A DNA stretch of 64,000 bases from Schmidtea nova (GCA_044892505.1 CM097883.1:136896001-136960000); one strand, 5' to 3'. Counted from the stretch's first letter, positions 28,088-49,703 are shown. A program made the numbers and translations. Notes: generated by a model not told the origin, from the letters alone.

Positions 28088-28091
<4 letters not shown>

Positions 28092-28128: not shown

Positions 28129-28134
<6 letters not shown>

Positions 28135-28705: not shown

Positions 28706-29296
28706 CTATTCGAAATATTTAGTAATGTCTTCATCGGAGACTACCAAATTCATGGTTAAATCAATTTCCGGAATTTCTTTTGACTGTTGTGCCAATTGCT
28801 GAAGCACTTGCTTCTTCCAGCGACGCTGACGCGCGCCCATCTTGCTCTTCTTCTTCTTTTTACATTCTGGAATGGCTATACTATTTGGTGTAATTGCTGC
28901 TGTTGTTACTTGAACCTGAGATGGTTCATCTGTGTTTGTTCCTTTCGAACATCCGGATTTCTCTTCAGCCCAATGCTGACTGGTAATGGGTCTGATGAGT
29001 TGTCTTAACTCTTGATTTAAATAAGTAGCTGTCACCGATTTTAGGCACTTTTTCAGCTCCATCTTTGTAGCATCCAGTTCCATTTGCACTTCGCTGTTTG
29101 CTCGCTGTGAACGCTGGGTTTTGAGGATTTGTGCTTTCATTTGTTCTGGACTAAACCAGCTTTTCTTCAGGTTTGAAATTATACCATCGGCTTCTTTTAG
29201 TTTTTCGGATTTTCGCAATATTTCCTTTTCGAGGCTGCGAATTATCCGCCATGCCTTATCCAATTCTGCTTGATGATTTGTTGGGTTGAATGACAT
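28706..29296 (-). CDS. LTR-encoded 196-aa coiled-coil/basic protein (intact copy)
   Basis: ATG-to-stop ORF with heptad-like N-terminal half and basic KKKKKSKMGARQRRWKK segment. A homolog is present at 813-1367. Confidence 0.65.
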   Translation of the reverse strand: MSFNPTNHQAELDKAWRIIRSLEKEILRKSEKLKEADGIISNLKKSWFSPEQMKAQILKTQRSQRANSEVQMELDATKMELKKCLKSVTATYLNQELRQLIRPITSQHWAEEKSGCSKGTNTDEPSQVQVTTAAITPNSIAIPECKKKKKSKMGARQRRWKKQVLQQLAQQSKEIPEIDLTMNLVVSDEDITKYFE

Positions 29297-30152
29297 TTTT
29301 CTAGAATTCGAGATGATTTATCAACATGAAATTTGTTATTTGGTTTAAATGTATCTCCTGCTTTCCACGACTATTACTTGCTAATTTAGGAAGAGAAAAT
29401 GATATACCTATTATACTTTCAACACTGTCGCTATGTACAGCGATCAGATACCTTCATTTACTAATATGTTTTATTTATTTACGCCTGTGCTATATACAGC
29501 AATCAGGATAAGAAATTATTTAAATACAACTCAGATCTACTGCCCTATGTACAGGGTTCAGGATAATTAATCATATTTCATTAATGATTTAGCTGTGTTG
29601 AATCTTTGATCCTATAGCCTATTGATGCTATGCTACCTGCGTGGTAGATCACTACGCTATTAAAGTTATCGATTTTGATATTGTTATATTTAAAAGTATA
29701 TTTTGTACAAATTCTTAACCGTTGTATCTGCCGCTTTATGCCCACAAACCCCAGATGTGACAATCGAAAAATATAGGTTAACATTCTATTACTCCAAAGG
29801 TGGAATCAGATTAATAATAATCACATCTATTATTATCTTATGATAAAGTTTAACTCAATCCAAATACAACTTCGTGATACTCAAAAATCTATCATTGTCT
29901 AAAAAATGAAATCAGACTTCAACTGGTTATACTATCCAGCGATAATAATAATGTTAGAAATCATGGTTAATAAAAATTCCTACCCTCTTCACGGCGCTTT
30001 ACACCGGTCGGACGGCCTAACTGTACGGAGCAGTCATTCTACTCGGCACAGTATGCCTCCATTTCACCGATTTCACGGTGATCGGAGCCCCTTGAATCAT
30101 ACGTATATCTCTACTGTAACTACTGTACATAAATAATATATATATTCGCCTC

Positions 30153-30343
30153 CTTCCACTGATTGCACAGTGGAAGAAGCTCGACCCAAAAATTATTCAT
30201 AAAAGAATATATACTTGTTCGTAATTGTTAGCATAAACTGATACTGTTGCCTCCTTCCACTGATTACACAGTGGAAGAAGCTCAATAAAGTATAAATAAC
30301 AGATAAATAGAGTCGTCTCCTTCCCCTGATTTCACATTGGAAG
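30153..30343. promoter_or_regulatory. Three dyad/hairpin repeats CTTCCACTG-N6-CAGTGGAAG in the LTR
   Basis: Copies at 30153-30176, 30254-30277 and 30320-30343 (degenerate); repeated in the 5' LTR at ~51748-51941. Confidence 0.6.
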
Positions 30344-31169
30344 AAGCTTAAATAATTCTAAATTCAAAAAAATTATAAAGCCTATATAAAACTTCATAAG
30401 ATTTATTTAGGTTTAGATAATGTTGACAGAAATCATAAAAACAATAGCAACATAAAAATCAGAAATCCATACCTGTTAGCTTCAATAAAATTGTCTCGAC
30501 AAAGTTAGCACAAAATTTGCATATAACAATAATGCTTAAAAATATCATTAACTTTAACTGAATCTGGATCAGTATTTATACTGACCAGATCAAATGCTGA
30601 ACCAATCAGCTTGAAGCCGATCATCCGACCAGCACAAATAATAAATTTTTCTAAAAAATAAAATCGATTTAATTTGTTTTAAATCGTTAACTTTTCTTGT
30701 TTTAATTTCTAAAATTTTGTAATTCTTTTTCTTTATTATTTATTTACTTCACTTTCTTTTTATTTAAATACAATTATGTATCCTTTTCTTAATACTTTTA
30801 ATAATTTCAATTCTATTTCTTCTAATTCTTGCTGTTAAATTTATATAAATTTATTACTTTTAATTCATCTTTTTCTGAAATTTCTGGTAATTATATTAAT
30901 TTTAATTTATTCTTATTTATTTCTTATTATTCTTATTATTTATGCTAAATGTGGACCAAATGGTGGATCCAACATCACTCGGGGACCCCTAAAATTGCGT
31001 CCCGCAATTAATTATACAATATTACTTATATTCAACATTCAAAAAAAAATTTTTTACGCTTGGTACATAGGTATACAGATTCACATAAGGTGAGTTTATT
31101 CTACACGTAATCACGAAGAAAATATAAAGAAAATTCAGATAATTGTTAATCAAATGTTTTGTTAAGTAA

Positions 31170-31733
31170 TTATAGTTTATACCGATAGTTCATAACTCGC
31201 ACTGGATTGGACTGGTTCTGTGGAATTGCTGGTAACTCGTATTGGGTTCGTATTCTGTTGAGGTGATTTCTCGTTTGTCTTCGGGCATTGTCATCATGTG
31301 CTGTTGTTTGATTGATAATCGATTGTTTTTGTTTAAGAACTTTTATTCTGTATACTGCAATGAGAATGGTAATTGCGCTGGTTGTTGTACTAATTGTTAA
31401 CACGATTATAATCGCAACGATCCATCTCTCTTGGTATTGAATTTCTGCTCGATGTAAATTCTTTATAGTTTCTTTACTTTCTTTTAGGGTTTTTCGAATC
31501 TTCTCTAATTTGTTATTGATTTTGCACAGGGTTTGTTGCGTTGATACTGGGTTAGGTGCTGTTGACAATTGAATTTGAGAAATTTCTTTAGCTGTTTCTT
31601 TTAATAGATTATCTATTTCTTTATAGATTTTATAGGGTAAGACTTGTAGATTTTCTTTTGATATCGGACGGTCTTCTCTTTGTTGGGTGATTTCGATCGC
31701 GTTTAGGATCATTAGGATTGCGAGCCTCTTCAT
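31170..31733 (-). CDS. Accessory ORF6, 187 aa, predicted type I membrane protein
   Basis: N-terminal MKRLAILMILNAI signal-like peptide, helical ectodomain, hydrophobic WIVAIIIVLTISTTTSAITILIAVY followed by basic residues. Confidence 0.65.
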   Translation of the reverse strand: MKRLAILMILNAIEITQQREDRPISKENLQVLPYKIYKEIDNLLKETAKEISQIQLSTAPNPVSTQQTLCKINNKLEKIRKTLKESKETIKNLHRAEIQYQERWIVAIIIVLTISTTTSAITILIAVYRIKVLKQKQSIINQTTAHDDNARRQTRNHLNRIRTQYELPAIPQNQSNPVRVMNYRYKL

Positions 31734-32034
31734 TTTACTTTACAAATTTGTCAATACAGTTTGACATGGTTATTTTACAGATATTTACAACGAATTTTTC
31801 GCTTCTTTAAACTAACGACTCATTGGGTTCGTGAAAACCTTCATCTTGAGATTCCACTTGATTCGTAGGGAGTGGTAACCACACTATCGTGTTTCTCCAC
31901 ATTGTTACTTCATCCCGATAGAAGTGTGATAATTGAATTTCTTCATCCAATAGGTATTCCAAATAATTAGATTGCTCTGTCAACGCTTCGATCTGTTTTT
32001 CTAATTCTGTTATTTTGTTGTTTCTCTCTTCCTC

Positions 32035-32868
32035 TTACATCATTTTTATTACTGCTTTGGTGATATCTGTCTCTTTTGGTGGTGTTAATTTTTGTATCAA
32101 CTTTTGTTTCAATTCTTCGTTTTCTTTAGTTAAATTTAATAAATTTTCCTCATAGCTTTGTTTTGCTTCTTCCAATCTTTCTTTAGTTTTCTTTAATTCT
32201 ATCTTCTTTTGAGTGATTACTCCTTGATATCCATTTATATCGCGCTTCATGTCTTCCTCTTTCTGCATCCCTGCTCTGATTTGTGCGTCTACTTGTTGTT
32301 GACTAAGATATAGTTCTCTCCCTGTTATTTCAATCTGGTGTCTAAATTGTTTGATTTTCTTTGCTTGATCTCTGATGAATTGTTGTCTCTTTTTGTTCCA
32401 TTTTTTACTCGATATTTCCTGATAGGTTTTCTGTTCTAATTCCTCTTTTAATTTATCGATTTCTTCAAAAAATTTCCAATCATCACTGTACGCCGTTCTC
32501 TCAATTATTTCTCTTGCTTTCGTATAAGCTTCTTTCGCTTCTTTTTTCCAATATCTTGCTTGCTCGGTAATGGAGTACATTTTTCGTTCCATTTCTGTTC
32601 GTTCTCGCTCTCTTTCTTCTCGTCGTTCTTTCATCATCTTTTTATAATATTCTTTTTGTTTCTCCAATAATTCATATAGTTCGTCTATTTTATCTTGACT
32701 TAATCGCTTTAATCTTTTGGCTTCTTTTATTTGTTCGGCTTGTCTTTCTACTTCTTTTTGTTTGTGGTAATATGCGTGGATCCAACTTTCAATTTGTTCT
32801 AAATGCTCACAAATAACTTCATCTTGATGTGCGGTAACTTCTTGTAAACTGATTTCGACGTTTCCCAT
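32035..32868 (-). CDS. Accessory ORF5, 277-aa coiled-coil protein (MG- start)
   Basis: E/K/Q-rich heptads. The frame stays open for 42 more codons after the TAA. Confidence 0.7.
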   Translation of the reverse strand: MGNVEISLQEVTAHQDEVICEHLEQIESWIHAYYHKQKEVERQAEQIKEAKRLKRLSQDKIDELYELLEKQKEYYKKMMKERREERERERTEMERKMYSITEQARYWKKEAKEAYTKAREIIERTAYSDDWKFFEEIDKLKEELEQKTYQEISSKKWNKKRQQFIRDQAKKIKQFRHQIEITGRELYLSQQQVDAQIRAGMQKEEDMKRDINGYQGVITQKKIELKKTKERLEEAKQSYEENLLNLTKENEELKQKLIQKLTPPKETDITKAVIKMM

Positions 32869-32973
32869 TTTCTATAATTATAAATATTTTCAATCAGACT
32901 ACTTTTATTATTTTTGTTTATTTATCATTTTATGTTGTTTTGTACATTTTATTCACACGATCATTTTCTCTTG

Positions 32974-34407
32974 CTACGCCAACCATCCTTTTCTATCTGC
33001 CTTCTCGTTCCTTTCCATTTCTATGTATAAGGTATCCTCATACAATAATCCCCATATCTTGCTTTGTAATACAAAGTATGGTTCTCCACTTGCTAATCCA
33101 CATTCTTCTGTTGGTCTATTGCTCGTATCTACTCCTTTTTCTGTCGTGAATCTCTTTTCTATGGTTTCGTTTAAACCCCTGATTTTTATTATTACTCCTA
33201 CTCCTATTGGCCATTCGATTAAATCGTCATATTCTCCTTTGCAAAACGCAAAGAATATCGATACGTGTTTTCCAATACCTTTTCCATCTCCGTTTGGATA
33301 TACTTTCAATCTCACTTTAGCCCCGTTTTTCCATAAGTAAAATGGTGGGCTTATTACCGCAACTTTCTTGAAGCTTCTTGCATCTTCTAATTTATTTCGA
33401 AAATCCGTTATTTTCCACACATAAGGTGCTATTGGTAAATCTTTTTTCTCATCAATTTCTTGTATTAATTTGTTATATTGCACTTTCATTCCTTTTGCTA
33501 ATTCCTTGATGGCTATTATTTTCTTTTCCATCTTTTCTCGGGTTAATTCAAATTGTTCTCTCGTTTCTAATAATAGGTTCATCATTATTTTATGAGATTC
33601 TACTTCCTTTTCTAATTTCTGAATTGTTCTGTCTGTCATTTCAATATGATTGATTGCTTCTGTTTCTAAATGTTGTTTCATAGTTTGTTGAGATTTCTTT
33701 TCTTTGCATCCATATCTGTTGTAAGGACATTCTCTTGATATTTCTGTACACTTTTCCCAATGTTCTCGTAATTTCACTTCTTCGGTAGTTTCACATTTGT
33801 TTGGGCACACTCCTACATACTGTTCGCATATTTTCTCTTCTTTTATATTGATGTGCTCCTCTTCAATTTTTCTCCTTGTTTCTCGAATTTCGCAATATTC
33901 ACATGCGATTTCTTCCTCTTTGCATCCATCTCTGTGTTTCTCTTTGTCTTTTAAAATTATCGTTTCTTTACACTTTTCACATTCGCTTCTCTTTTCTTCA
34001 CAATTTTCTATATGATTTTCAATTTCGCTGATTTGTCCTTGCCATATGCACGGTGGATTTATACATTCAATTAATATGCTCATGATTTCTCTCTGAGTTG
34101 CTCTATCTGGTCTTGTTTCGTCTACCACTATTTGTCCTTCTTTACATTCTGGGCATTCTGTAATTCTCTTTAACTCTAACATTTGTACACATCTAGTGCA
34201 TAATCTACATCCACAGGCGGTTTGCTTTGGTTTTCGTAATAAATTATTACAATATCCACATAAAAATCTCTTGTTCCAATTTCTGTTTGCTGCTCTCAAA
34301 ATCTCGACTGCTCGTTCCTCTTTATCCATTTCTACAATAATATATACATACATTGATTTGTTCTTTGTTTTTGATTTTTCTAGAGTTTTATTTTTACATA
34401 TATACAA
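32974..34407 (-). CDS. TRAF-family protein (RING, TRAF zinc fingers, coiled coil, MATH); likely start ATG 34329
   Basis: CGYC..PKQTACGCRLCTRC..CPEC RING; CEYC..H..C and CPN.C..H..C zinc fingers; MATH motif YVWKITDF..SPPFY..KVRLKVYPNGDG.G.GKHVSIFF..GEYDDLIEWP. Confidence 0.9.
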   Translation of the reverse strand: MYICKNKTLEKSKTKNKSMYVYIIVEMDKEERAVEILRAANRNWNKRFLCGYCNNLLRKPKQTACGCRLCTRCVQMLELKRITECPECKEGQIVVDETRPDRATQREIMSILIECINPPCIWQGQISEIENHIENCEEKRSECEKCKETIILKDKEKHRDGCKEEEIACEYCEIRETRRKIEEEHINIKEEKICEQYVGVCPNKCETTEEVKLREHWEKCTEISRECPYNRYGCKEKKSQQTMKQHLETEAINHIEMTDRTIQKLEKEVESHKIMMNLLLETREQFELTREKMEKKIIAIKELAKGMKVQYNKLIQEIDEKKDLPIAPYVWKITDFRNKLEDARSFKKVAVISPPFYLWKNGAKVRLKVYPNGDGKGIGKHVSIFFAFCKGEYDDLIEWPIGVGVIIKIRGLNETIEKRFTTEKGVDTSNRPTEECGLASGEPYFVLQSKIWGLLYEDTLYIEMERNEKADRKGWLA

Positions 34408-34425
34408 TTTTCCGCTGCAATTTGA

Positions 34426-34761
34426 CTATGGTTCGCTCGTTGAATCTGGTTCCATACCATTCTCTAATCCATTTATTACCCAATCTAGCCATTGACCTTC
34501 TGATTCATCTCTTCTTGATAGTTGATTCATTTCCACTGTTTGTCTTAATCTCTGATTCTCTCTTGTTAGTTCTGTTATTATTCTCTGTTGCTCTTCTATT
34601 TTATGTAATTGTTCAAAAATATTGTTGTAACAATCTGCTAATATATTTTGCTTCTCTACCAGTTGATTCTGTAGTGTATTCATTGATCGAACTAACGTTT
34701 CACATTGTGCTTTCCATCGCATAATCATAGTCATTTCGGTTGTTTCTTCTCGTACATTCAT
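34426..34761 (-). CDS. Accessory ORF3, 111-aa coiled-coil protein
   Basis: ATG-initiated, Q/E/L heptads (LQNQLVEKQNIL..ITELTRENQRLRQ), packed between ORF2 and the TRAF gene. Confidence 0.55.
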   Translation of the reverse strand: MNVREETTEMTMIMRWKAQCETLVRSMNTLQNQLVEKQNILADCYNNIFEQLHKIEEQQRIITELTRENQRLRQTVEMNQLSRRDESEGQWLDWVINGLENGMEPDSTSEP

Positions 34762-34883
34762 TTTCTAAAATACATTATTATTTTTCTCTTTTCTCTTTTT
34801 ATATACTCTATAATACTAATACCCATACTATATACGGTAATGCTTTGTAATTTACAATATTATTTACAGTCATATCCCACCCT

Positions 34884-37800
34884 CTATACTATCATCACTG
34901 CCTTTTCATCGTGTCGCTCCTCGTCTTCTATTTGCTTCCAAAATTCTTTGCCTTTGGTTCTTCTTTGGAATTCTTTCTTTACTTCTTCTGGTATTTTGAT
35001 TTTACAATTCATAATCTTTATATCTGGCCATTGTCTGGTTGGTTTCCTTTTTATTATGTCCCATAGCCATATTATTGATAATATTATTATTACTGGTACG
35101 CCTACTGCTAGTATTCCTACTCCAATTAATTCTCTTCTTTGCTTGTTAACATTGATTTGGGTGAATTTGCTCTGATTGATCATTGGTCCATATTGTCCTT
35201 TTAATTTGAGTTCCAATTGTTGTTGCTCTTGTTGTTTCCTTTTGACTTCCTGGATTACTTTTTCTGGTTTCCATTGTGCATAAGAATCTATTATTGTTTC
35301 CTCGTTTTCCATTTGTTTCGTTGTTTGATTCAGTTCTCCGAAGGTTAGCTTCTTGATTCTTCCTTTGATTGTTGTATTTGTCGATGTATAGTAGTTTCCA
35401 CATTTTTCTTGCTGGTTTCCAAATTTATCTGCCTTCTCTATTGCGCATATTTCGTATTGTTTGTCCAATTGTAGGTTCTGAATTCTGATCTCCTCTTCTT
35501 TATTCATCTTTTCGCATTGTTGTGGTTGTCTTTCTTCGTATTTCTTGATCATTGTCCAACATATTTCCACTGTTTTGTCATCTAATTTCCAAAGTATAAG
35601 TGTTGCTGAGGTTTTCCTCTCTGGTTCTGTTTGACTTTCGGTAGTGGTATGCTTCGGTTTTTGTTGACTTTTATTCTTTCGTATTGCTTTAATGGTTTTT
35701 ACTCTGTTCGGTGCTTTGTATATTCTGCATTCTAAATCTTCTTTCGTAATTTGATCATTTTCCTTTATTAGGCATATTTCATAAGTTTGATTTCTTTCTA
35801 AGCTTTTTATTTGTACTGCAGTTGTTCCTTTGACTGTTTGACATTGTGATGATTTATGTTTATTCGTTTCTTTCTCGTATTTTCTCCAGCATACTCCGTT
35901 TACGTTTTGTTCTATTCCCGTTATTTCTAACGTTATGGTTAATTTCTGGAAATTCTGGTTGTTTCTTTTCCCCATTTTTCTTGCAAACGTTATTATTTTC
36001 CCTGCTTGGAATGTTTTACAATTGGTTATTCCTTTCTTGTTTCTCTCTTTTTCCAATAAACATAGTTTATGAATTCTGTCTGTTTTTATCTTTATTATCT
36101 TGATTACTTTGTTCGTTTTACCCGCTTCCAGTTTCTGAATTTCTCTTGATTCCTTTAATTCTAATTTTTCATCGTTTCTAAACCAACATTTTTGATTTGT
36201 CATTTGTGTCTCTTCCATGTCTATTAATGTCATTGTATCCGTCTCTATTCCTTCTTCTAATCGCTTCAGTATTGTCATAATAAGTGCTATACATAACAAC
36301 TTGGAATTATAGATTACTCTTGTGGTTTGTTTCGTTCGTCTTTTTAGTTCTGGTTTATCCGTTGTATTTCTTATACTTGGTGTCGTTATCTTGGTTCTTG
36401 GTGGTTGTAAGGCTTTTCTTGATGCTGGTGCTCTTGTTATTTTAAAATAAATTGGTCCTGGAAGGTCTATTCCATTGGTGAACTCGTATCGAACTTTGGG
36501 TGTCTTGTATACTTGGCATGTAACTGTTTTGTGTGATTTTACGTCTTTGGGTTTTCTGATTGTACATATTCTGTACCATGTTTCCATATCCATTTCGTCG
36601 ATTATTATGGTCTTTCGCTCGGGGTTTGGGATTATACATCGTAATAGGTTGTTATCTCCGAGAATTTCATTCTCTTTTACCCAACATACTTGTTCAATGT
36701 ATTTTGAATTCATTATTTGTGTTGATGCTTTTTGTATTGGTACTTCCATTTCCACTGATATCTCTTGTTCCGTTGCTTCACATTGTCCCATAAGTGTTAT
36801 GATTATTGCAAACATTAATACTTCTGGTCTGAATAATGGATTCCTTCTGTAACTTGTTCCTTTCTTTCCATGATTGCTTTTAGGGTTGTCTTCTCTTTGT
36901 TCTTTGGATTCGTGGTTCTTTGTATTTCTCTCTTGATTCTCATCTTCTTTGTTGGTTTGTTCGTGGTTATCTGGGTTTCCGTGATTATTTTCATCATCAT
37001 CGTCTTTATTTCTCTCGTCGTCCTTGCTTTCTTCATCGTCATCCTCATTGTTAGTATTATTATCTCCCCCTGGCTCGTTAAAAATGTCGTCCTCGACATT
37101 ACTTGTTTCTATTAGTTTTGCATAATATAGTGATGTCAAGTTACTTGCTTCGAATTCTTGGAATTCTATATCTTCGGGTATCTTTTTGTTGTCTAACTGA
37201 TACTGTATAATTTCTTTCTTGGCTTTTATCCAACTTTGGAGGTGTGTTCTCATCAGTTCTTTCCATTTGACTACCTTTTCCGTTTCTTTAGGCTTGTTTG
37301 TAAATCTCAGATCTTCTCTTCTCATGAAAATTTCTACAATTTCGGGCCATATATAAGTTATGAGTGCGCTTTTGATACACCAATTTCGATTATTCTCCAT
37401 AAACTTGTTGACTTTAAATGCTGGTTTATTTGTATTTGGTATTTTCCAGTTTAATACTTCTTCTGTCAATTTGATGTTTTGCATCATTGTCAATACGCTT
37501 GGTCCTTTTACGGTTTCTGTTAAATAATCTATTTCTTCCTGGTTTGTTATCGTTTTAATGAAATTCAACATTTCCCAGTTTGGACCTAATAATGTCACGT
37601 CTAATATTGAGTTGTCTTTGCTAGTTTTTCCGATTAATCCTGCGCCTGCTTTATATAACTCTTCTAATACTTTGATTTTTGTTTTTGCTCTTGCTGCGTA
37701 TACCATAAGGGTGTCTCCTTTTTCGTCTATCATATTCATATCACATCCACATTGATGCATTAATTTTGCGATTTCGATTACTTTGCTGTCTTTTCCTGCT

Positions 37801-38147
37801 CTCAATGCTCTATGAATCGGCATTATTCTTTCTTTTGTTAATAAAAACGCAACTGGCATTTCTCTTTTTATAGTTATTATATCATCTCCATTATATATTC
37901 CTTTCGCGTACGCGTGTACCTTTTCTACTATCGCGCCAAGTATTTCTAAGGCGTATTTAGTATTTTTGAATTCTGGTAATAGTTCCTTTGCTTTTTTGTG
38001 TATTGCATCTAATCTTTCTTGGTAATCTATCTTCGCGTTGAACAATGGTGTGAGTATCCTTTTACTTTCTTCTTCTTTCTGATTTATTGCTTGATTAAAT
38101 TTTTGTAGCTTGTGTCTTTGCGTATTTGTTTTTGACACCATACCCAA
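34884..38147 (-). CDS. ORF2 (~1085 aa): ankyrin repeats, acidic linker, signal-like segment, four Cys-containing FN3-like repeats, C-terminal TM
   Basis: DMNMIDEKGDTLMVYAA ankyrin; VLMFAIIITLMGQCEA signal-like segment; repeated CW..C..I.I..L...Y.IC..C..Y modules; LIGVGILAVGVPVIIILSIIWLW TM. In the -1 frame, overlapping the ORF1 end. Confidence 0.8.
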   Translation of the reverse strand: MGMVSKTNTQRHKLQKFNQAINQKEEESKRILTPLFNAKIDYQERLDAIHKKAKELLPEFKNTKYALEILGAIVEKVHAYAKGIYNGDDIITIKREMPVAFLLTKERIMPIHRALRAGKDSKVIEIAKLMHQCGCDMNMIDEKGDTLMVYAARAKTKIKVLEELYKAGAGLIGKTSKDNSILDVTLLGPNWEMLNFIKTITNQEEIDYLTETVKGPSVLTMMQNIKLTEEVLNWKIPNTNKPAFKVNKFMENNRNWCIKSALITYIWPEIVEIFMRREDLRFTNKPKETEKVVKWKELMRTHLQSWIKAKKEIIQYQLDNKKIPEDIEFQEFEASNLTSLYYAKLIETSNVEDDIFNEPGGDNNTNNEDDDEESKDDERNKDDDDENNHGNPDNHEQTNKEDENQERNTKNHESKEQREDNPKSNHGKKGTSYRRNPLFRPEVLMFAIIITLMGQCEATEQEISVEMEVPIQKASTQIMNSKYIEQVCWVKENEILGDNNLLRCIIPNPERKTIIIDEMDMETWYRICTIRKPKDVKSHKTVTCQVYKTPKVRYEFTNGIDLPGPIYFKITRAPASRKALQPPRTKITTPSIRNTTDKPELKRRTKQTTRVIYNSKLLCIALIMTILKRLEEGIETDTMTLIDMEETQMTNQKCWFRNDEKLELKESREIQKLEAGKTNKVIKIIKIKTDRIHKLCLLEKERNKKGITNCKTFQAGKIITFARKMGKRNNQNFQKLTITLEITGIEQNVNGVCWRKYEKETNKHKSSQCQTVKGTTAVQIKSLERNQTYEICLIKENDQITKEDLECRIYKAPNRVKTIKAIRKNKSQQKPKHTTTESQTEPERKTSATLILWKLDDKTVEICWTMIKKYEERQPQQCEKMNKEEEIRIQNLQLDKQYEICAIEKADKFGNQQEKCGNYYTSTNTTIKGRIKKLTFGELNQTTKQMENEETIIDSYAQWKPEKVIQEVKRKQQEQQQLELKLKGQYGPMINQSKFTQINVNKQRRELIGVGILAVGVPVIIILSIIWLWDIIKRKPTRQWPDIKIMNCKIKIPEEVKKEFQRRTKGKEFWKQIEDEERHDEKAVMIV

Positions 38148-41100: not shown

Positions 41101-44100
41101 CGAACTCTGCTTCATTTAATAATTGTAATTGGCATTCATTCGCTTTTGCTCTGTATGTTAAGGTCGACATACCGGTTTGACAGGTACTGGCTTCAATTTT
41201 ACACATTGATAACGTCTTCATTTCTCCTGTTGCTGGGTCAAAATATGCTTCATATGCTTTTAATTCTACCGTATACGTGTCTATTACTACCATGTTAGTT
41301 GCTGGTACTCCAAATATCGGATATGTTGCTCCTTGACAGTAACCTTCTCCTCCTGTGATAGCTCCTGCTACATAATAAGTTTGTTGTAGTATTACTCCAA
41401 CTTTTCCTTTTATCTTTATTCGATCTCTTGTTTCGACTTCTCCATGTCTAAACAATTTATTGCAATCTTCTCCTTGTAACATTATCGCTTCTCTTTCCGT
41501 TCCTGGCATTACGATTGCAGAGTAGTGGCGATGTCCACAATAAAAAGCGAATCTTGTTTTATATATTTTACACTCGTTAACTGTTGTCTTTATTAATTCG
41601 GCTTCCTGATATACGTGATATATTTGTTTACTATGTAATACTTTTAATTCTGTTGGAGTTGCATCTTTGCATTGTTCGGTTCCTCTTAATGAATATTTTT
41701 CTCCTAATGCCATCTGGTCGCAATCAAATACTTCGAACGTTGTTGCTCCTTCAACGCTAATTAGCCATATTAATATCATCATTATGATTGAATTCAGGTT
41801 TAGTGAAGATTTTCCACTTCCTGTTCCTGACTTTTCTTTTTCTAATTCCCCTAAAATTTCTTCAAATTTCTTTTTCATATTCTTTGCTTGACCGTTTCTT
41901 TGATTCGTTTTAGCAAATGTTTCCCATCCTCCTTTACTGATGACGTATGGCTCTATTTCTCTTGTTATGATACTTGCTGTATTTTTGATATGCTTCTCTA
42001 TTGCCGTAGATTTTGGATTACCTCTACTCAATGTTAATAAGTTATAAATTGTATACGCAATTGCTATCACATATTTATTATCATTTTCTGCATCTTCAGT
42101 TAACCTCTTTATCAACGTTGTGGTCCCTTGCCAATCTAAATGGCTTGATTTTGTCTTTTCTTTTATTAGTTCGGGTAAGATTGGTGCGATTGCGCTATGT
42201 AATGCTTTAGCCTTGTCGCTTATTTCGTTTATTCTCCACCATTTTTTCAATTCTGGATCAATTATCGCCAGTATTTCCATTAATGCTTTTGATATCCATC
42301 CTTCGCCTTGACATTTTTGCGTTGTTTCTTTGTCTTTGGCTTCTGCTATTTTGTTAAGTTTCTTTAAACATATTTCCCATTTCTCTTGTCTCCTTTCCTC
42401 TTTGGTTTTGTTGATTGTGTTTGCTGGACCTGTCTTTGGTCTACCTCTAGATCGTTTATCCATTGTTGTACCTGTTTCAATCAATCTGGTTTCTCGTCCG
42501 GTTTCTTCTGTAATATCTCTTGGTTCGTTATTTCTCTGTTCCCACCATTTTTCCATTTCTTGTGTTAATCGTTCGTTTTCTGTATTTGCTCCTCTTGCTT
42601 CTTCTTCAGAGATTTCGTTCACTTCTTCTATCTCTATTTCTTGCTCAACTTCATTTTGGGTATTGATTGCTTGTGATGTTGTGGGTAACTCTTGTACTCT
42701 TTCGAAAATATTATTGCCTTTTTCTTTTGTCAAATTAGTTAATTCTTCTAGCATATCATCGCTGTCTGTTAAGATCTCTTCTACTCCGTATGGTTGTGGT
42801 AGTGTTCTTTCTTGAACTTTAATTGATGTTGTTTCGTATTGTCCTGCGCTTGTTCCTGGCTTTATCTGCATCGTCTTTCTTGGTTTCTGAGTGTCTTCAC
42901 TTTCTTTTACTCTTTTCTCTTTAAGTGTTAATGGTTGACCTGCTATTGCGTCTACTGTTAACGTATTTGCCAGTTCTAACTGTGCTGGCGTTATCCAAAT
43001 TTCCATATCGTTTTCTAATGATCGTCCTTGATGTTGTAGATGAAATGGTGGTTCATATTTTAATCTCTTTTTAACATCCCGAATCTTTTCAGTTAATCTT
43101 ACCCAAAGCTCTTCTTTTTCTCGATCTGGATATATTATCCTTAAATGTATTTTCTGCGGTGGTTCTTGGGAGTTTTCCTGGTTTCTCCATTTCTTGATTA
43201 CATTGCCTAATTGTTCTGGGCACCACTCGTTAACTCGTTTATATTCTGCTACTGCCTTGGCTACTTTTCTTAAACTGATTATATCTTCGCCGCCTGCTAC
43301 GAAAAATTCGGCTAATCCTTTGATCGTTCGCCTTTTTCCTTGTACATTCCCTTTTAGTAATTCTATAAGTTCGTCAGCTTTTCGTCTTTGTGTTTCTAAC
43401 CATATTGCTGCGGTTTCTGGTCCATCTAAATCTGTTGGCATGACTTTTCTTGTCACCATACAAACTCTTCTGATTTCTGGTTCATATTTATCTTCCATTT
43501 CTGGTCTAAATTCCTCTTCATATATACCTCCTTTTGCTTTCCAGCATTTCTCTTTAACATCCCAGTGTTTCTCTACTGGTGTTAATCGGCGTTCGTTGAA
43601 GTTTAATTCTCCTAATACATTTTCCCATTCTGGCTGTATCTGCCATCTTCGATAAATTTCAATTATTTGTCTTAGTTTGTGCATCTCTTCTCTTCGACGT
43701 TCTTGTCTCCTTTTTTCGTCTTTTGGTGTTTCTCTTGGTGTATCATCCATTCTGATGACATGAATTGTTTGGTAATTATCCCATATACCGATTTTATATA
43801 ATCGTCTCTCATCATGATCTCCTAGTACGTGTTCATTATATTTTATGATGATATCATCTTCTAATTCGTCTTCTTTTTCCCGTTGTAGTAAAGTTTCATT
43901 GATAACATCAACTAATTCTTCTACTGTGCAATCCGCGATTACTTCAATTTCTTTTGTGTCCTCGTTTGGTAATTTCACTTTGATTTTTAAATCTCCTATT
44001 TCTCCTCGTTTAAACATTGCTTTTCCCATTTTCGCGATCACTTTCCAAGTCTTGTACGGCGAATATCTCGTATGGCTGGTATCTCGTATATTTTCGATGC

Positions 44101-47100
44101 ATTGTTTTAATTTCTCATATTCAGCTTTCGTTAATTCTTCTCTATTCTTGTCGATTTGTTGAATAATTTGTTCTATTAGGGAATTTAAATTTTCTCTAAG
44201 AATTCTTTCTTTCCTTTCTGTTAACTGTGGTTTAATTCTCATCTCAAAACACATATTTGCTTCCTTTGCTATTTCTTGTAGATTCTCCTCTTTCTTATTG
44301 TCACATATTGATAATGTTGTTATCTCTCCTGGCCATATGCCTGTTTCTACCAAATGCGTTGCTCGTCTTACAAGTTCGTTTCCTGAATATATAAATTTGT
44401 TTTTATACGAACTTCCCAATCTGTCTTCTACCCATCGATAAATTTCGTTCATGCATGGAGATTTGATCCAAATTCTTGGTAAACATTCGTTTATTTCTAT
44501 TAAAATTATGTATTCGTGGAGTGGTTCTTCTAATAGTTTGACGACGTATCCTGATAATATCTCTACTTCACGACTTTGTAATCGTTCTTTATAGTTCATT
44601 CGGAATACTGCTCTTATAAATTTTCGATATCGCTTCTTATCAATAAATTCCTCGTTATAAATCACTTCTAACGCATTATCTAATAGTTTCCGAATTTCAT
44701 CTTCTTTTATTTGTATATTTTCTGGCGTCTTCGCTACTTCTATCTTGTTGTCTTCATTTTCTGGTTCTTTTAGCATATCTCCTGCTAAACTTCTGACATC
44801 ACTGTCACTTTCTACATCTGAAAATTCTCTAGTTAAGTTTCTTAACATATTTATGTGTGCTGTCTGTTCTACTTTATCTGGTACATTCTTTGGTGATATT
44901 TCTTCCTTTTTGTCATTGGTTCCTGATTCTTCTATTTGGCCTCTTCGTTTCTCTATTTCCATTGCTTTTCTCTGTTTGATTCTCTCTTCAAATATCTTCA
45001 ATGCTCTACTTTTGACTTTTGTTACTGGATTTGATTTCTCTTCATCGTTATTTTCTTCTATTTCCTGGATAACTGTGACTTTCATTTTATTCATTGGTAC
45101 TCCTAAATCTTTCCATATGTCGGTTGGTTTCAATTTTATTGCTGCTTCGTCTTCTGTCTGTAAAATTGCTTCTCGGGGTAGTTTCGTCATTCCCGGAATC
45201 GTCTTGTTTACTTTATTAATTAATACTCCTACTTCCTCTTTTTCATCATATTCAAATCGAAATACATGATCGTTTGGCATGACTACCAACATCCTTTTTT
45301 GTTCAATAACTTCTTCGTTTTCTTGTACTATTTCTTTTTGGTTTTCTTCATCCTCCGGATTTGGGTTTATCCGGTTTGTTTCTGGTTCAATATCTTCTTT
45401 GTTATCTCTTGTTTGATTCGTTGCTCTCATCATATTAATTCTCAATGGTTGTCGTTCTCTTTCTTGTCGTTTCTGTTCGTCTTCTCTTTGTATTCTTGCC
45501 CATTCTTGAGCATGTCGTGCTTGACTTTCTCGATTTAGTCGTTCATTTTCACTTTCTACTTTTCTCATCATATTCATTTGTTGTTGATTCGTTTGTTGAT
45601 TTCCTCTCGGTGTATTGTTTATTAACTCTGTTAATCTTTGAACTTCTTGTAATAAATGTATCTCCTTGGTGGTACTTTTGTTTTGATTATAACTACTCTG
45701 TTGATTTCCATAATTCTGACGGTTTCCGTTATTCTGTTGATTCACATAATTTTGTCGATTTCCGTTGTTCGACCAATTCCTTTGTTGGTTGTTTTGTTGT
45801 TGGCAGTTCCTTGCCGTATGACCTGGTTGTCCACAGTTAAAACATGATCTTTGATAACATCTATTTTCCGAATGTCCTTTCCTTCCACACGTTTTACAAT
45901 TTAAGTTCACGAAACATTCTTGTTGCCAATGTCCTAACTTTCCACAGGTTTGACATTGCTTTGTCTGTCCTTGCGTATTGTAATGATTTTGGTTTCCGAA
46001 ATTTTGTACTTTGTTTCCTTCATTTCTCCTTTGAGGTGGTGGTCGATTTAATTGCTGTGAATTCGGAATATGGTTATTTATCTTTATTGCTTGTTCGTTT
46101 TGTGTCGTATCCATTGCTAGGTAAATTCTTCCTTCGCTTCCGATCATATGTAATTCGAATCTGTTGGCGACTTCCAACGCTTCATCTATTGTCTTACAAC
46201 CTTGGCATCCAACTTGTGCTCTTATATCGGGTCTTCTCAATCCCCCCACAAAAATTGCTGCCATTAATTCTGGACTCATTGGACTATTTTGATTGAATGC
46301 TAGTTTAGCCAATTTCTTTAATTCACTTGCATATACTGCATTTGATTCATTAACTTTTTGTTTCCTCATTGAAAATTCGGTAAACGCTTCATTTAATACT
46401 TTATTTATTCCAAACGTTTGCTGGAAAAAATTCTTTATCTTTTCCCAACTATCGAGTTGATCATCTGAATTTTTAGCTTCTAAATATAAATCTAACGCAC
46501 TGTCTTTTAAATATAGCTGAATTCTGCTCCTTATCGTTTCTGGATTCCATTTACATACTTCTACAAATATACCAAATTCTTTTAAAAACGTTTCTAACTT
46601 GCTGGCATCTCCATTGAATGGTTCTCCAGTAAATTTATCTTTGATTTCTTCTTTATGTTCGTTCATTTCTATTCCACTGTCTTGTGTCGTTTTACTCTCG
46701 TTTCCTCTTGTTTCACTAGTATGCTCGTTATTCGTTTCGTTTGAATTGTTATCAATTTCTGCTTCTTCTACTTCTGTATTTATTGACTCGTTATCTGATG
46801 CTTCTGTATTATTATAATTATCGTAGGTTTCACTTGAACTTTCTTCTGTTTCACTTTCGTTAGTTTTTGTTAATTTACTGTTTTCGATTTTTGACTTTTC
46901 TACTATTACTCTTCTTGATTTACTTCCTTTAGGATTTGTTTTCTTTGTAACACTGGTTGCTCTTTGTTTCGATTTACTTCTCTGTGAATTATCAACTTTT
47001 TGAGTTGTAGCACTAACTGCTCTTGATCTCAATTTATTTCTCTGTGAATTATTAACTTCTTGGTTTTTAACTGTTCTTGATCTCGGTTTACTTTTCTTTG

Positions 47101-47152
47101 ATTTATCAATTTTTTCTGTTTCTCTGCTATCGTATTCTGATTGATTGGTTGG
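38084..47152 (-). CDS. ORF1 polyprotein (~3000 aa): Gag - UBL x3 - Bcl-2-like - glycoprotein - aspartic protease - ankyrin
   Basis: Stop-free from 47152 (first ATG 46666). Gag EPFNGDASKLETF..LYLKDSALDLY; CCHC x3 at 45803-45955; BH2-like PYVISKGGWETF; glycoprotein FEVFDC..FYCGHRHY..NDCILNREILKTKLAVA; IDTGANISAI (39347-39355); ATALHNAI ankyrins. Confidence 0.9.
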   Translation of the reverse strand, partial: PTNQSEYDSRETEKIDKSKKSKPRSRTVKNQEVNNSQRNKLRSRAVSATTQKVDNSQRSKSKQRATSVTKKTNPKGSKSRRVIVEKSKIENSKLTKTNESETEESSSETYDNYNNTEASDNESINTEVEEAEIDNNSNETNNEHTSETRGNESKTTQDSGIEMNEHKEEIKDKFTGEPFNGDASKLETFLKEFGIFVEVCKWNPETIRSRIQLYLKDSALDLYLEAKNSDDQLDSWEKIKNFFQQTFGINKVLNEAFTEFSMRKQKVNESNAVYASELKKLAKLAFNQNSPMSPELMAAIFVGGLRRPDIRAQVGCQGCKTIDEALEVANRFELHMIGSEGRIYLAMDTTQNEQAIKINNHIPNSQQLNRPPPQRRNEGNKVQNFGNQNHYNTQGQTKQCQTCGKLGHWQQECFVNLNCKTCGRKGHSENRCYQRSCFNCGQPGHTARNCQQQNNQQRNWSNNGNRQNYVNQQNNGNRQNYGNQQSSYNQNKSTTKEIHLLQEVQRLTELINNTPRGNQQTNQQQMNMMRKVESENERLNRESQARHAQEWARIQREDEQKRQERERQPLRINMMRATNQTRDNKEDIEPETNRINPNPEDEENQKEIVQENEEVIEQKRMLVVMPNDHVFRFEYDEKEEVGVLINKVNKTIPGMTKLPREAILQTEDEAAIKLKPTDIWKDLGVPMNKMKVTVIQEIEENNDEEKSNPVTKVKSRALKIFEERIKQRKAMEIEKRRGQIEESGTNDKKEEISPKNVPDKVEQTAHINMLRNLTREFSDVESDSDVRSLAGDMLKEPENEDNKIEVAKTPENIQIKEDEIRKLLDNALEVIYNEEFIDKKRYRKFIRAVFRMNYKERLQSREVEILSGYVVKLLEEPLHEYIILIEINECLPRIWIKSPCMNEIYRWVEDRLGSSYKNKFIYSGNELVRRATHLVETGIWPGEITTLSICDNKKEENLQEIAKEANMCFEMRIKPQLTERKERILRENLNSLIEQIIQQIDKNREELTKAEYEKLKQCIENIRDTSHTRYSPYKTWKVIAKMGKAMFKRGEIGDLKIKVKLPNEDTKEIEVIADCTVEELVDVINETLLQREKEDELEDDIIIKYNEHVLGDHDERRLYKIGIWDNYQTIHVIRMDDTPRETPKDEKRRQERRREEMHKLRQIIEIYRRWQIQPEWENVLGELNFNERRLTPVEKHWDVKEKCWKAKGGIYEEEFRPEMEDKYEPEIRRVCMVTRKVMPTDLDGPETAAIWLETQRRKADELIELLKGNVQGKRRTIKGLAEFFVAGGEDIISLRKVAKAVAEYKRVNEWCPEQLGNVIKKWRNQENSQEPPQKIHLRIIYPDREKEELWVRLTEKIRDVKKRLKYEPPFHLQHQGRSLENDMEIWITPAQLELANTLTVDAIAGQPLTLKEKRVKESEDTQKPRKTMQIKPGTSAGQYETTSIKVQERTLPQPYGVEEILTDSDDMLEELTNLTKEKGNNIFERVQELPTTSQAINTQNEVEQEIEIEEVNEISEEEARGANTENERLTQEMEKWWEQRNNEPRDITEETGRETRLIETGTTMDKRSRGRPKTGPANTINKTKEERRQEKWEICLKKLNKIAEAKDKETTQKCQGEGWISKALMEILAIIDPELKKWWRINEISDKAKALHSAIAPILPELIKEKTKSSHLDWQGTTTLIKRLTEDAENDNKYVIAIAYTIYNLLTLSRGNPKSTAIEKHIKNTASIITREIEPYVISKGGWETFAKTNQRNGQAKNMKKKFEEILGELEKEKSGTGSGKSSLNLNSIIMMILIWLISVEGATTFEVFDCDQMALGEKYSLRGTEQCKDATPTELKVLHSKQIYHVYQEAELIKTTVNECKIYKTRFAFYCGHRHYSAIVMPGTEREAIMLQGEDCNKLFRHGEVETRDRIKIKGKVGVILQQTYYVAGAITGGEGYCQGATYPIFGVPATNMVVIDTYTVELKAYEAYFDPATGEMKTLSMCKIEASTCQTGMSTLTYRAKANECQLQLLNEAEFDEVQGKIFQEEEDDEVARGKRLQETVKGEKPFTAKVQEKEVRMRDTPTVLVTSNANIGMRFVKGKPTLKCGVSMLETNYPGIYVSRQAAPNAKPKIDTTDIKLQVYLNNKLDFLFHKGQASMEKIYYDLINNDCILNREILKTKLAVAITNPDSAMPLLPLNEGHFGRVVGEVMYVYICRKTQASIASTTRLRQGQCTNELEIEYKGKIRYVQPVTRIINPVSFEPNPFNCSNAYGPLYQKPDGNWVMFPSRSEVQPPREFELMQLSKGRKFSNIDVNNGGIYSAKDLEAARQNILFPARREAVLSSIVTITGGTSYQGGPNYELLLSPAHFRKATENMMRAMWGRFLIFGQMMAGILGVILIIQIIRVIITQMLACFDIYKREKKVNWKLIAGFLPFLAKTMVLHGHSKDIHRIKRLLKILAKMKGTDEDVGRKFKKIMTDEQARLQLKRERKGLLERIRGDKTQDDSSDDDDNNDDCEGGQRYRNQAPQYNDKNPAEAWKCHAPPPTMYQEPLQVSGHRAMQMMPMTTLYPIIPEDYKLRRCRSMDPQEDSLTIAVMSSNTGPVLTTTIEINGKEIEAMIDTGANISAIDIKWIPQEQRQEIERTNVHVKACSKEIVEVAGRWWVKIRHQNIEIETYVAVIPALSVPCIIGTDLMPTLFKEIIIDLGTMRLKDRTGKICAMEAKVINSKQIMIPEEKSMTRSQTIRINMLRAEEINTTSQVDSEKIDVDKEIVRKAKEINERWEIRREKDVLWDIRQIISDYARGCPTKPVIIELLKKIPEILVLQDTGGATALHNAISWGKTEKVKEFLKIAKETNQNLDIVNRELETPMMTATLKLADKEIVDILINAEFNWTARDRRGNTVLNHAIMSENQMILKHITTNLTWEIDELIKGEIMKEAIRKGNTKTIWKLIQWKWPNNKTWVLDINKEFSEGQNALLRYLLEIPCDQRTMLALMNRGKINISKNEKEYKLEVEKEALFRKIWVWCQKQIRKDTSYKNLIKQ
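38096..38102 (-). other. Candidate -1 ribosomal frameshift heptamer A-AAU-UUA
   Basis: In ORF1 phase (..AAA AAT TTA ATC AAG CAA TAA), three sense codons before the stop. A -1 slip enters ORF2. Confidence 0.55.
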
Positions 47153-47624
47153 TTAGTTTGACTTGTTCTGTTCCGTGTATCTAAATTAAAAAGTCACTTC
47201 AACGATACATCATTGTTATCGTTGCGCTTTTATTCCTCATTATTGGGTTTCCATTGTTTCCCCATTCCCGGTTTCCCCTTTATTTAAGTCTATTTAATTT
47301 ATCTATTCACTGGTAACAATTATCTATATGGTCGTAATAATTATCTATCGTTATCAAATAAATTCATTACTTCTCCCTCGGTCTCCCAAATAAATTTGTC
47401 GCTCAGACGCTTTAATTCCCCTGAGTTCTCCTGACTCAGTTTTATCCTTTTATTACTATTCATTATATCGTCATTACTCATTATTCTCACTAATCAACTC
47501 TAATTTCTCCTATTCTTATTTCTACTTGTATGCATACTGTATCTCTAGTTTACTTAATCATCTTTACTCGTATTACTCAAACTCTAATGCTCACTATTCT
47601 TACGTCGTCGACGACTACAACTCT

Positions 47625-47812
47625 AGGTTCATATTCCTTATGTTGTTATTCATAATGCAACCCTAGGTTCATATTCCTTACGTTGCTATCAACAATCGCA
47701 ATCATAGGTTCACATTCCTTATGTTGCTATCCATAATCGCAATCACAGGTTCACATTCCTTGTGTTGCTATCCACAATCGCAATCATAGGTTCAAATTCT
47801 TATGTTGCCATT
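47625..47812. repeat. Leader tandem array 1: ~41-bp unit x~5
   Basis: aggttcacattccttatgttgctatccataatcgcaatca(c/t) starting at 47625, 47665, 47706, 47747 and 47788. Confidence 0.9.
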
Positions 47813-48230
47813 GACCCTTCTTTCAGAGTAACTAACTAATATGGCTTATTTGCCCTTGACCCTTCTTTCAGAGTAACTAATATGGCTTATTTGCCCTTGA
47901 CCCTTCTTTCAGAGTAACTAATATGGCTTATTTGCCCTTGACCCTTCTTTCAGAGTAACTAATATGGCTTATTTGCCCTTGACCCTTCTTTCAGAGTAAC
48001 TAATATATGGCTTATTTGCCCTTGACCCTTCTTTCAGAGTAACTAATATGGCTTATTTGCCCTTGACCCTTCTTTCAGAGTAACTAATATGGCTTATTTG
48101 CCCTTGACCCTTCTTTCAGAGTAACTAATATGGCTTATTTGCCCTTGACCCTTCTTTCAGAGTAACTAATATATGGCTTATTTGCCCTTGACCCTTCTTT
48201 CAGAGTAACTAATATGGCTTATTTGCCCTT
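47813..48230. repeat. Leader tandem array 2: 41-bp unit x10
   Basis: gacccttctttcagagtaactaatatggcttatttgccctt at 47813, 47858, 47899, 47940, 47981, 48024, 48065, 48106, 48147 and 48190. Confidence 0.97.
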
Positions 48231-48699
48231 GACCTTTTTATACAAGGTATTTAACTAATCTCTTTAACCGGTTAACCGTAATTATCCACTTCTCTAGTTA
48301 TCATTCAGCTGAATTATCTCTATTTTTATGAGAGTTATCACATTAACTTTCATTCTACTTATTTACTTAATGTTCTTTCGACTTCCACTGATCAGTGTTC
48401 TATTCTCTCTTTTTTATTTGTATTTTCTGCATGCACTTAAACCTCATTAGATTGTCCCTACCTTTCACCCCAACCAAAACATACAAAAAGATCGCATTGG
48501 TCTACTAATGCAAGATGTGGTGATCAGTCACATCACAAAAGCTTTCCAATTTCCGCGATGGGCCCCTTTCTATACATCTCGGGTAAGTTGATCAGTTGGT
48601 TCCTCCCAATGGGTGCTTAACGGACTACTCGTGAGCAGCTCAAAAATTATTTATAAATATCAATTGCTATCATGATTCCTGTCATTGCCATTATCAATT

Positions 48700-48832
48700 C
48701 TCATATTAAATTCTCATTATGAATTCTCATATTAATTCTCACTATGAGTTCTCATATTAATTCTCATTATGAATTCTCATATTAATTCTCATTATGAATT
48801 CTCATATTAATTCTCATTATGAATTTTCATAT
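48700..48832. repeat. Leader tandem array 3: 25-bp unit x~5
   Basis: ttctcatattaattctcattatgaa repeated. Confidence 0.9.
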
Positions 48833-48876
48833 TTTATTTATCACAAATAATATTACTAAATTTCAGAATTTATTTA

Positions 48877-49338
48877 TTATAAATACACAATAATTCTTTC
48901 GTCTATTTCGAGATTGCACATCGGGCATTTGTCGCAGTTGGCTGCACAGATTCTACAAAACCGAAAATGTCCACATGGTGAAAACATGATTTTATTCTCC
49001 CTTTCTCGACATGTGTAGCAGAGTTTAAATTTCTTAGCTGTCTCAGTTCCTTGTATTGTCCACTTGTGGTATGTTGGAGTTAATTGTTGTTCTAACTGTC
49101 TGCATTTTATATTTAGATCAGCATTTTCTAATCTCGTTCGGTACCACTTGTATCTAGTTGTTATATCTATTTTGTCTACTCTTTCCATTATTTTTATCAG
49201 CTCTGTTGTCTCTTCGGTTTCTGTCGTGGGTTCTGTGAATCCGGATTCTCTTATTCGACTTATTTTCTCGCATAATTCATCATATGTTTTGTTTTCCGTG
49301 TTTAAGAATTCTTCTATTTCTTTTAATTTGTCGTTCAT
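48877..49338 (-). CDS. 153-aa protein with C-terminal IAP/MDM2-type RING finger
   Basis: CYTC..IMFSPCGHFRFCRICAANCDKCPMC..IDERIIVYL at the extreme C-terminus; no BIR domain. Confidence 0.8.
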   Translation of the reverse strand: MNDKLKEIEEFLNTENKTYDELCEKISRIRESGFTEPTTETEETTELIKIMERVDKIDITTRYKWYRTRLENADLNIKCRQLEQQLTPTYHKWTIQGTETAKKFKLCYTCRERENKIMFSPCGHFRFCRICAANCDKCPMCNLEIDERIIVYL

Positions 49339-49703
49339 TGCTAAATAATTGATATTGTTAATATGTTTGCTGTTTTATTTGTTATAAAAATTAAAAATTT
49401 CAATATCTTGTTTTTCTATTTGCTCGGTTTGTGTCGGTTAAAAGTAGTGGTACATTTCGTTTTCCGATATTTAAACTTCCACCTGTTTCATCAAATTGTC
49501 GTCCCGACATATTTATTTATGTTTATTTATTTTATTTTGATATCAATCATTAATCGTCTTGTTATTAAATCATTGTTTTTTCCAAACTTCTCTGTTGATA
49601 TTGCTTTCACTTTTATACAAAAATCAATTGCATTTTCGGCTGAGGGGCACTTTAAAACTCCTGGTTGTTATTGGATTCAATTTTTCGCACAAAAACCATT
49701 TTC

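Follow-up and report, generated by a model that had tools for sequence, protein, structure and literature searches.

The locus: a giant retroelement with six accessory reading frames

The stretch analysed here, the window, comprises 64,000 nucleotides of Schmidtea nova (GCA_044892505.1 CM097883.1:136896001-136960000), with positions counted from its first letter. It holds a Burro-like long terminal repeat (LTR) element of the Ty3/gypsy type, and our subject is how a row of accessory open reading frames (ORFs) in this element may be expressed. Self-comparison revealed two direct repeats of about 2.85 kb, 99.6% identical with 12 differences, which bound a 24.4-kb element on the minus strand (28129-52570); all features of the element given below lie on that strand, whose base composition is 44% A. 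Because a primer-binding-site-like 18-mer (49704..49721), 6 nt past the LTR end, adjoins the right repeat on the minus strand, we identify the right repeat as the 5' LTR (49728..52570, about 2.84 kb), and this sets the direction of the element. The 18-mer is presumably tRNA-Pro-like. The 3' LTR (28129..30974) has TG...CA ends and adjoins an (AT)n run. The terminal TG is absent from the 5' LTR, and the flanks (52570-52580 and 28090-28128, the left one being (AT)n) carry no target-site duplication, which suggests later deletion or recombination at the element ends.

The polyprotein frame (38084..47152) is open from 47152 and has its first ATG at 46666. The resulting single-frame ORF of 2860 aa encodes, by Pfam, a gag zf-CCHC knuckle (274-290), a Monjiviricetes-type fusion protein (Monjiviricetes_fusion, 1898-2252) and an aspartic protease (RVP, 2424-2514), followed by ankyrin repeats. 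Its end is overlapped by ORF2 (34884..38141, 1085 aa), whose ankyrin-like start is homologous to the C-terminus of a related polyprotein, P0124.

Six accessory ORFs accompany these frames. One encodes a RING-finger protein (48877..49338, 153 aa; Pfam zf-C3HC4_3, E 2e-10). Four follow ORF2 as a cluster: a coiled-coil-like ORF of 111 aa with a weak Pfam hit (34426..34761); a TRAF-like ORF with RING, zf-TRAF and MATH domains (32974..34329, 451 aa from its second ATG; Pfam MATH_2, E 3.5e-20); an ORF of 277 aa with no Pfam hit (31807..32868), which stops at 32035 and whose frame is then open for 75 further codons; and an ORF of 187 aa with a hydrophobic N-terminus and one hydrophobic segment (31170..31733). 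The sixth lies within the LTR (28706..29296, 196 aa) and has a basic C-terminal tract; its copy in the 5' LTR is broken by a 1-nt indel. The RING and LTR ORFs are 1.7-1.9 kb from neighbouring ORFs. A homolog search with the TRAF ORF returned none, as did a metagenome locus search with the TRAF query, and the LTR ORF had no homolog among 1.84 billion representatives.

Probable splice acceptors stand before the accessory ORFs

An earlier note on this DNA had claimed that nearly every ORF carries a 3' splice acceptor 2-4 nt before its ATG. The motif strings that it quoted are all where it had placed them on the minus strand, and that of the host gene DDX18 lies on the plus strand at 11787. The generalization held for the accessory ORFs, in all six of which an AG precedes an ATG by 2-4 nt, and failed for both polyprotein ORFs. 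Five of the six accessory sites are YAG. The acceptor of the RING ORF (49341..49368) is a TAG with a spacer of 2 nt and an AG-free zone of 27 nt. Within the cluster, the acceptor AG is at 34766-34765 (spacer 3) in the 122-nt gap before the 111-aa ORF (34762..34883), at 34333-34332 (spacer 2) in the 96-nt gap before the TRAF ORF (34330..34425) and at 32873-32872 (spacer 3) in the 105-nt gap before the 277-aa ORF (32869..32973). The TRAF site serves the second in-frame ATG, at 34329, and not the first, at 34353. In the 76-nt gap before the 187-aa ORF (31734..31809), the AG described earlier as a weaker site at 31733 is present, but as an AAG (31739-31738, spacer 4, AG-free zone 62 nt) rather than a YAG. 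The acceptor of the LTR ORF (29301..29354) is again a TAG (spacer 4, AG-free zone 52 nt). A diverged LTR-ORF homolog that had been placed at 1367 survives as a weak match (35% over 40 aa, pairwise E 7e-4) that is interrupted by two internal stops.

We then asked how far these sites exceed chance. A YAG stands 2-4 nt before the first ATG in five of the eight element ORFs of at least 100 aa, against 0.07-0.13 of 484 other ATGs (binomial P 9e-5 to 7e-4). Comparison with shuffled sequence, the check proposed earlier, likewise gave enrichment (P=6e-5 for at least five sites by local shuffle). The 2-4 nt spacer window was picked post hoc, and at 0-6 nt P is 0.004-0.017. When a pyrimidine-rich tract is demanded besides the YAG, three of the eight first ATGs qualify (P 1e-3 to 3e-3).

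The accessory sites also have the surroundings of acceptors. The AG-free zones of the five YAG sites span 19-52 nt, against a median of 8 in 114 non-coding YAGs (p=0.005), and these sites are richer in T (p=0.005), with total pyrimidine borderline (p=0.06). In five of the six upstream stretches, the site is the best-scoring AG. An acceptor matrix trained solely on six sites of the distant relatives introduced below was applied to the 1937 sense-strand AGs of the element, and it placed the TRAF site at rank 8, the 111-aa site at 10, the 277-aa site at 20 and the RING site at 23. Lower ranks went to the AAG site (129) and to the LTR-ORF site (180), the weakest among the five YAG sites and 33 of 111 among the AGs of that LTR stretch. 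The ATG of ORF2 (38141) has no acceptor close by, the nearest site ranking 296. The gag ATG at 46666 (GAATAG/AA, the slash marking the joint) was rejected as an acceptor site, with an AG-free zone of 6 nt and rank 1434, and is probably not a splice-set start; removing it leaves four of the eight ORFs (shuffle P=1.1e-3 for at least four). The acceptor pattern is thus real, above chance and confined to the accessory ORFs, and the window sites are very probably working 3' splice acceptors.

The pattern recurs in distant relatives

A metagenome search yielded six related loci, of which L001, L002 and L006 were counted; L003-L005 have no complete accessory region and were omitted. Locus searches of viral contigs and genome contigs gave no related loci. 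The three counted loci are 27-41% identical to the window in the best segment, and each has a full polyprotein bearing reverse transcriptase (RT), followed by accessory ORFs whose proteins gave no hit to the window's accessory proteins. Of the six accessory ORFs in these loci, five have a first ATG preceded at 0-3 nt by a YAG. With a 0-4 nt window, P is 1.6e-4, and it falls to 8e-6 when an AG-free zone of at least 12 is also required; under the original 2-4 nt window, the count is two of six (P=0.06). One of these sites is a CAG (CAG/ATG) and hence no stop codon. In the sixth ORF, a textbook acceptor stands 13 nt ahead of an in-frame ATG further on. Three of the six accessory proteins are homologous and exonuclease-like, so the six genes are not independent. 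The earlier proposal that these sites are 3' splice acceptors that give monocistronic accessory mRNAs is well supported, by the AG-free zones, by the design shared with relatives that carry other genes and by the ranks from the relative-trained matrix.

The exonuclease-like gene is common to L001 (12169-13473), L002 (10617-12107) and L006 (10024-11781), with RNase_T matches (E 1e-5 to 1e-3) in two of the three, and it was not found in the window element. In L001 the last 1056 contig bases are not covered, and its LTR is incomplete.

RT, RNase H and integrase are present in all three relatives and were not found in the window element (no Pfam hit, and neither a YxDD nor an HHCC motif). Among five related polyproteins, one, P0124, likewise has no RT between its protease and ankyrin regions. 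Together with the 99.6% identical LTRs and the long open frames, this layout suggests a lasting non-autonomous lineage that keeps its env and accessory genes.

Short gaps and a motif after stop codons

The four gaps of the window cluster (122, 96, 105 and 76 nt) separate genes on the same strand and are all under 300 nt. In the relatives, the gaps are 166, 125, 115, 334, 133 and 66 nt, so that five of six are under 300 nt (66-166 nt). These lengths are close to those of flatworm operons, for which a peak near 100 bp in M. lignano (PMC8629364) and a median of 99 bp in S. mansoni (PMC12582326) have been reported. Together with the motif described next, they extend the operon-like geometry beyond what the earlier note had described. 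The downstream genes are preceded by an acceptor without a nearby donor in the window gaps; exceptions are the first gap of L002 and L006. Each window gap contains 1-3 ATGs, which is evidence against plain scanning.

A motif of the form TGTA..AATAA recurs within 90 nt after stop codons in the window and the relatives. In the window cluster it appears as TGTAAATAA at 34868, TGTAAAAATAAA at 34398, TGTGAATAAA at 32957 and TGTAAATA at 31789, and after the 187-aa ORF as TGTAGAATAAA at 31105; a further occurrence of the motif is at 48845. All six non-coding occurrences of TGTAAATA, a string first spotted in L001 and L002, lie within 90 nt past a stop in four elements, where such intervals make up 16% of non-coding sequence (P=2e-5). 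We rejected a window-wide enrichment of this string (9 found, 7.5 expected); it is unusual in position only. A pattern of TGTA and AATA separated by 0-3 nt follows four of seven window stops (P=0.003) and four of nine relative stops (P=0.004), and TGT[AG]N0-3AATAA, which was tuned on the window, follows six of seven and three of nine. The motif was not found after stops in L006. Because it also follows stops without a close downstream ORF (31105; 12701 in L002), we assign it to the upstream gene. AATAAA follows six of nine relative stops (P=0.048) and 10 of 16 stops overall (P=0.03). Candidate roles for the post-stop motif are those of a poly(A) signal, of a Pumilio element or of the two together.

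How the accessory genes may be expressed

Some processing must be assumed, since the downstream ORFs are reached only 12-20 kb into the transcript and after many ATGs. Operons resolved by a spliced leader (SL) have the same arrangement as found here: a motif past the stop, a gap of about 100 nt and an acceptor where the next ORF starts. We tentatively propose, at somewhat under an even chance, that host SL trans-splicing resolves an LTR operon into monocistronic accessory mRNAs. A single LTR-driven transcript would span the polyprotein and the row of accessory ORFs with gaps of about 100 nt, and in each gap the stop of the upstream ORF would soon be followed by a 3'-end element (TGTA..AATAA), and the next ATG would be preceded by a 3' splice acceptor. 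The transcript would be cut and polyadenylated in the gap and the downstream RNA recapped at the acceptor by the host SL, with monocistronic accessory mRNAs as the outcome. Some transcripts would have to evade cutting and SL addition to provide genomic RNA. Planarians trans-splice and carry SL genes (PMC10899757), and the spliced mRNA of the C. elegans gypsy element Cer1 bears SL1 (PMC3315495). Splicing at the sites, internal polyadenylation at the motif, an SL-using flatworm as host and the predominance of the SL over a cis leader as 5' partner are all steps that we infer.

Several observations weigh against host SL resolution. AATAAA is not enriched after the window stops (four of seven, P=0.31), and in base composition the A-rich window gaps (T 25-30%) differ from the ends of the three host genes, which are T-rich. 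The post-stop motif was partly defined after the data had been viewed, and it presumably matches the Pumilio element UGUANAUA. The mRNAs of S. mediterranea reportedly have no UGUA upstream of the poly(A) signal (PMC5068929), and a plain CFIm reading is the weaker for it. The flatworm SL terminates in AUG, and in E. granulosus this AUG is reported to match the reading frame for 143 of the 187 SL clusters (PMC3510090); here it would be in frame at six of 11 sites (two of the five window YAG sites, four of six in relatives). A cis donor is said to out-compete the SL for an acceptor (PMC4558846), and GTAAGT is present in the LTR. The first gap of L002 contains three GTAAGT, and in L006 a donor-like site precedes the acceptor by 29 nt.

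Cis alternative splicing in the style of complex retroviruses is possible, though less probable. A short non-coding leader exon from the 5' LTR would be joined to any one acceptor, the donor being GTAAGT at 49985 or CAG/GTATGG at 52070, and the mRNA would end at the 3' LTR or, as in adenovirus, at a poly(A) site after each ORF. The first candidate donor (49980..49985; 28381-28386 in the other LTR copy) lies about 70 nt after a TATAAA (50051-50056); the second scores 7/9 as a donor. The sole sense-strand GTAAGT, one per LTR, is thus in the LTR after a TATAAA, and this placement parallels the major donor of foamy virus, which is reported to precede the poly(A) signal within the LTR (PMC3694450). 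However, a single GTAAGT per LTR is the chance level (1.26 expected by composition), and GT[AG]AGT is absent from L001 (15.6 kb) and from the 385 nt before the primer site of L006, both of whose LTRs may be incomplete. Donor-like words are depleted on the window coding strand relative to synonymous shuffles (four of 11 motifs, p 0.010-0.014), but in none of the three relatives, and we dropped depletion as a family trait. The out-of-frame spacers of 2 and 4 nt would be harmless with a leader lacking a terminal AUG, and a tapeworm LTR donor joined in cis to an SL acceptor is documented (PMC4558846). Against this, introns of 15-21 kb must pass over many acceptor-like sites, and 3'-coterminal mRNAs need no 3' motif linked to the stop. 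Host SL trans-splicing thus comes narrowly ahead of cis-splicing from an LTR leader. Flatworm acceptors are reported often to be used by both cis and trans splicing (PMC12582326), so both may occur in the element.

Internal promoters are an unlikely source of the accessory mRNAs. A start site in or before the gap, for each accessory ORF or for the cluster, would be followed by removal of a short 5' intron or outron at the acceptor. TGTAAATA could then be read as a DNA site, which we take to be Forkhead-like; some gaps contain TATA-like words (TATATAAA near 34805), and in L002 an AG/GTAAGT precedes the first acceptor by 230 nt. However, the position of the motif follows the upstream stop and not the downstream start, gaps of 76-122 nt leave little space, and the window gaps contain no donor of at least 7/9 except one 18 nt before the TRAF AG.

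Least probable is the absence of any splicing role, with the pattern due to chance, an in-frame upstream stop or translation-start context in AT-rich DNA: the spacer window was indeed set after the fact, a TAG with a spacer of 0 or 3 nt is also a stop in the reading frame, which ORF calling favours, and the LTR-ORF and AAG sites score modestly, but the pattern is replicated in relatives with unrelated genes (CAG/ATG included), AG-free zones and T-rich tracts occur despite the A-rich strand, and all five window sites are TAG although the strand has 666 TAA and 326 TAG.

Further features of the element and its neighbours

The ORF1/ORF2 overlap (38084-38201) falls within the ankyrin region, which is a single frame in P0124; either the frame is broken in this copy, or a programmed frameshift takes place here. 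ORF2 is membrane-protein-like in its second half (34884-36850), with an internal signal-like segment, repeated Cys/Trp-bearing domains, a C-terminal hydrophobic helix and no Pfam annotation.

The gag frame is open for 162 codons upstream of its first ATG. In both the window (46667-47182) and L001 (97-240), the open upstream stretch is acidic, contains no Met and starts close to an acceptor-like AG; in the window, that site (47181..47196) has rank 22 of 1937, with the next ATG 514 nt on. From these sequences, the gag start in both may be supplied by splicing or by a non-AUG codon. Tandem repeats of 41 nt (47560-48260) and 25 nt (48690-48840) lie between the RING ORF and gag.

Each LTR contains four related hairpins (30056..30349, also 51654-51947; -13 to -20 kcal/mol) with the loop UG(U/C/A)AAU, and in the fourth, both stem arms have changed together. 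Rfam gave no match in 28000-53000, the hairpins included, and no tRNA gene was detected. As a speculation by analogy, the hairpins and the Arg/Lys-rich tail of the LTR ORF recall an export system of the Rev/Rec type. A second promoter-like stretch in the LTR (52065..52200), with an ATTGG box, TATAAATA and TCAGT, is a candidate from sequence.

For 28130-38120, no RNA sequencing run was listed, a result without bearing on expression. Four sequencing runs from one study, of a kind not stated, gave reads in all 30 bins of 28130-47500, with 2163 differences in all. CT..AC was seen in none of the 15 joints listed, of 116, and copies differed by indels in the stretch upstream of gag (46667-47182). 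Read depth was dropped as unsuitable for gauging LTR conservation.

In L002, three GTAAGTA occur in 110 nt right after the post-stop motif (10283-10616), one of them a perfect AG/GTAAGT. Going by the sequence, this trio could belong to a small non-coding exon, or serve as U1 sites by which an internal poly(A) signal is damped.

Outside the element, the host gene DDX18 (11787-16048, plus strand), whose best named matches are flatworm proteins (45-48%), has one 2.7-kb intron with an acceptor (TTATTTCTAG) that resembles the element sites. Intronless host ORFs lie at 53032-54984 (minus strand; G-patch/GCFC, TFIP11-like) and 25659-27170 (plus strand; RING). An unrelated gag-like ORF (24106-24627, minus strand; Retrotrans_gag, E 0.003) is also preceded by a strong acceptor, which lies 2 nt from the ATG and has an AG-free zone of 37.

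Discussion

Among viruses, the nearest counterparts are the complex retroviruses (foamy virus, HIV) and the adenovirus major late unit. The window element resembles them in having several suboptimal acceptors before accessory ORFs, an ORF in the LTR and a possible LTR donor. It differs from retroviruses, whose mRNAs share one 3' end, in having a motif after many stops, and in being a Ty3/gypsy-type element of an invertebrate.

The planarian Ty3/gypsy elements Burro and GYPSM1 are alike in giant size (more than 20 kb; 24.4 kb here), multi-kb LTRs (2.85 kb here), a CCHC-knuckle gag, a mononegavirus-like fusion protein in frame between gag and protease, and ankyrin, MATH/TRAF and RING domains, with accessory ORFs that may lie outside the polyprotein (PMC6431247). 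The window copy differs in lacking RT, RNase H and integrase and in having no BIR or BCL2 hit. Because those three enzymes were not found, the element is filed as Burro-like and non-autonomous, not as a Burro member, a likeness judged from the published description (PMC6431247). The search for related polyproteins returned no Burro sequence. The available text of that review is silent on accessory-ORF expression (PMC6431247). In planarians, piwi knockdowns are reported to raise Burro RNA (PMC8532177).

SL operons of flatworms and nematodes share with the array same-strand genes about 100 nt apart, an acceptor just before the downstream ATG and a 3'-end-like motif after the upstream stop (PMC8629364, PMC12582326). 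They differ in that the window array lies inside a retroelement that also needs unprocessed full-length RNA, and in that SL addition and internal polyadenylation are here predicted. Cer1 is likewise a gypsy element whose spliced mRNA takes a host SL; its acceptor before the initiator ATG is conserved across species, and its genomic RNA skips the splice sites (PMC3315495, PMC10309623). Unlike the window element, it is described with one SL site and one cis-spliced product (CERV), not with a row of ORFs each having an acceptor and a 3' motif (PMC3315495, PMC10309623). In a search that mostly left out subscription journals, we found neither an account of how Burro accessory genes are spliced or trans-spliced nor one of an LTR element with an SL-resolved operon of several genes.

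Multiple acceptors are known from retroviruses and a single SL site from Cer1; the surprising part is a cassette design kept across distant relatives with different genes. Shared by elements with different accessory genes and only 27-41% likeness between their polyproteins, this design points to a rule of gene capture that holds throughout the family. More tentatively than for the SL's part in the window element, we suggest that this giant env-bearing retroelement lineage may build true operons, in which captured genes would be cassettes with their own acceptor and 3'-end signal and the LTR transcript would be resolved by the host SL. Either outcome is of interest: an SL-resolved operon in a retroelement, or retrovirus- or adenovirus-like splicing over 15-21 kb in an invertebrate gypsy element. 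If the operon proposal is true, the cassette design would explain the steady gain and swap of genes such as TRAF, RING and exonuclease, and these elements would be virus-like agents that rely on host SL trans-splicing for gene expression.

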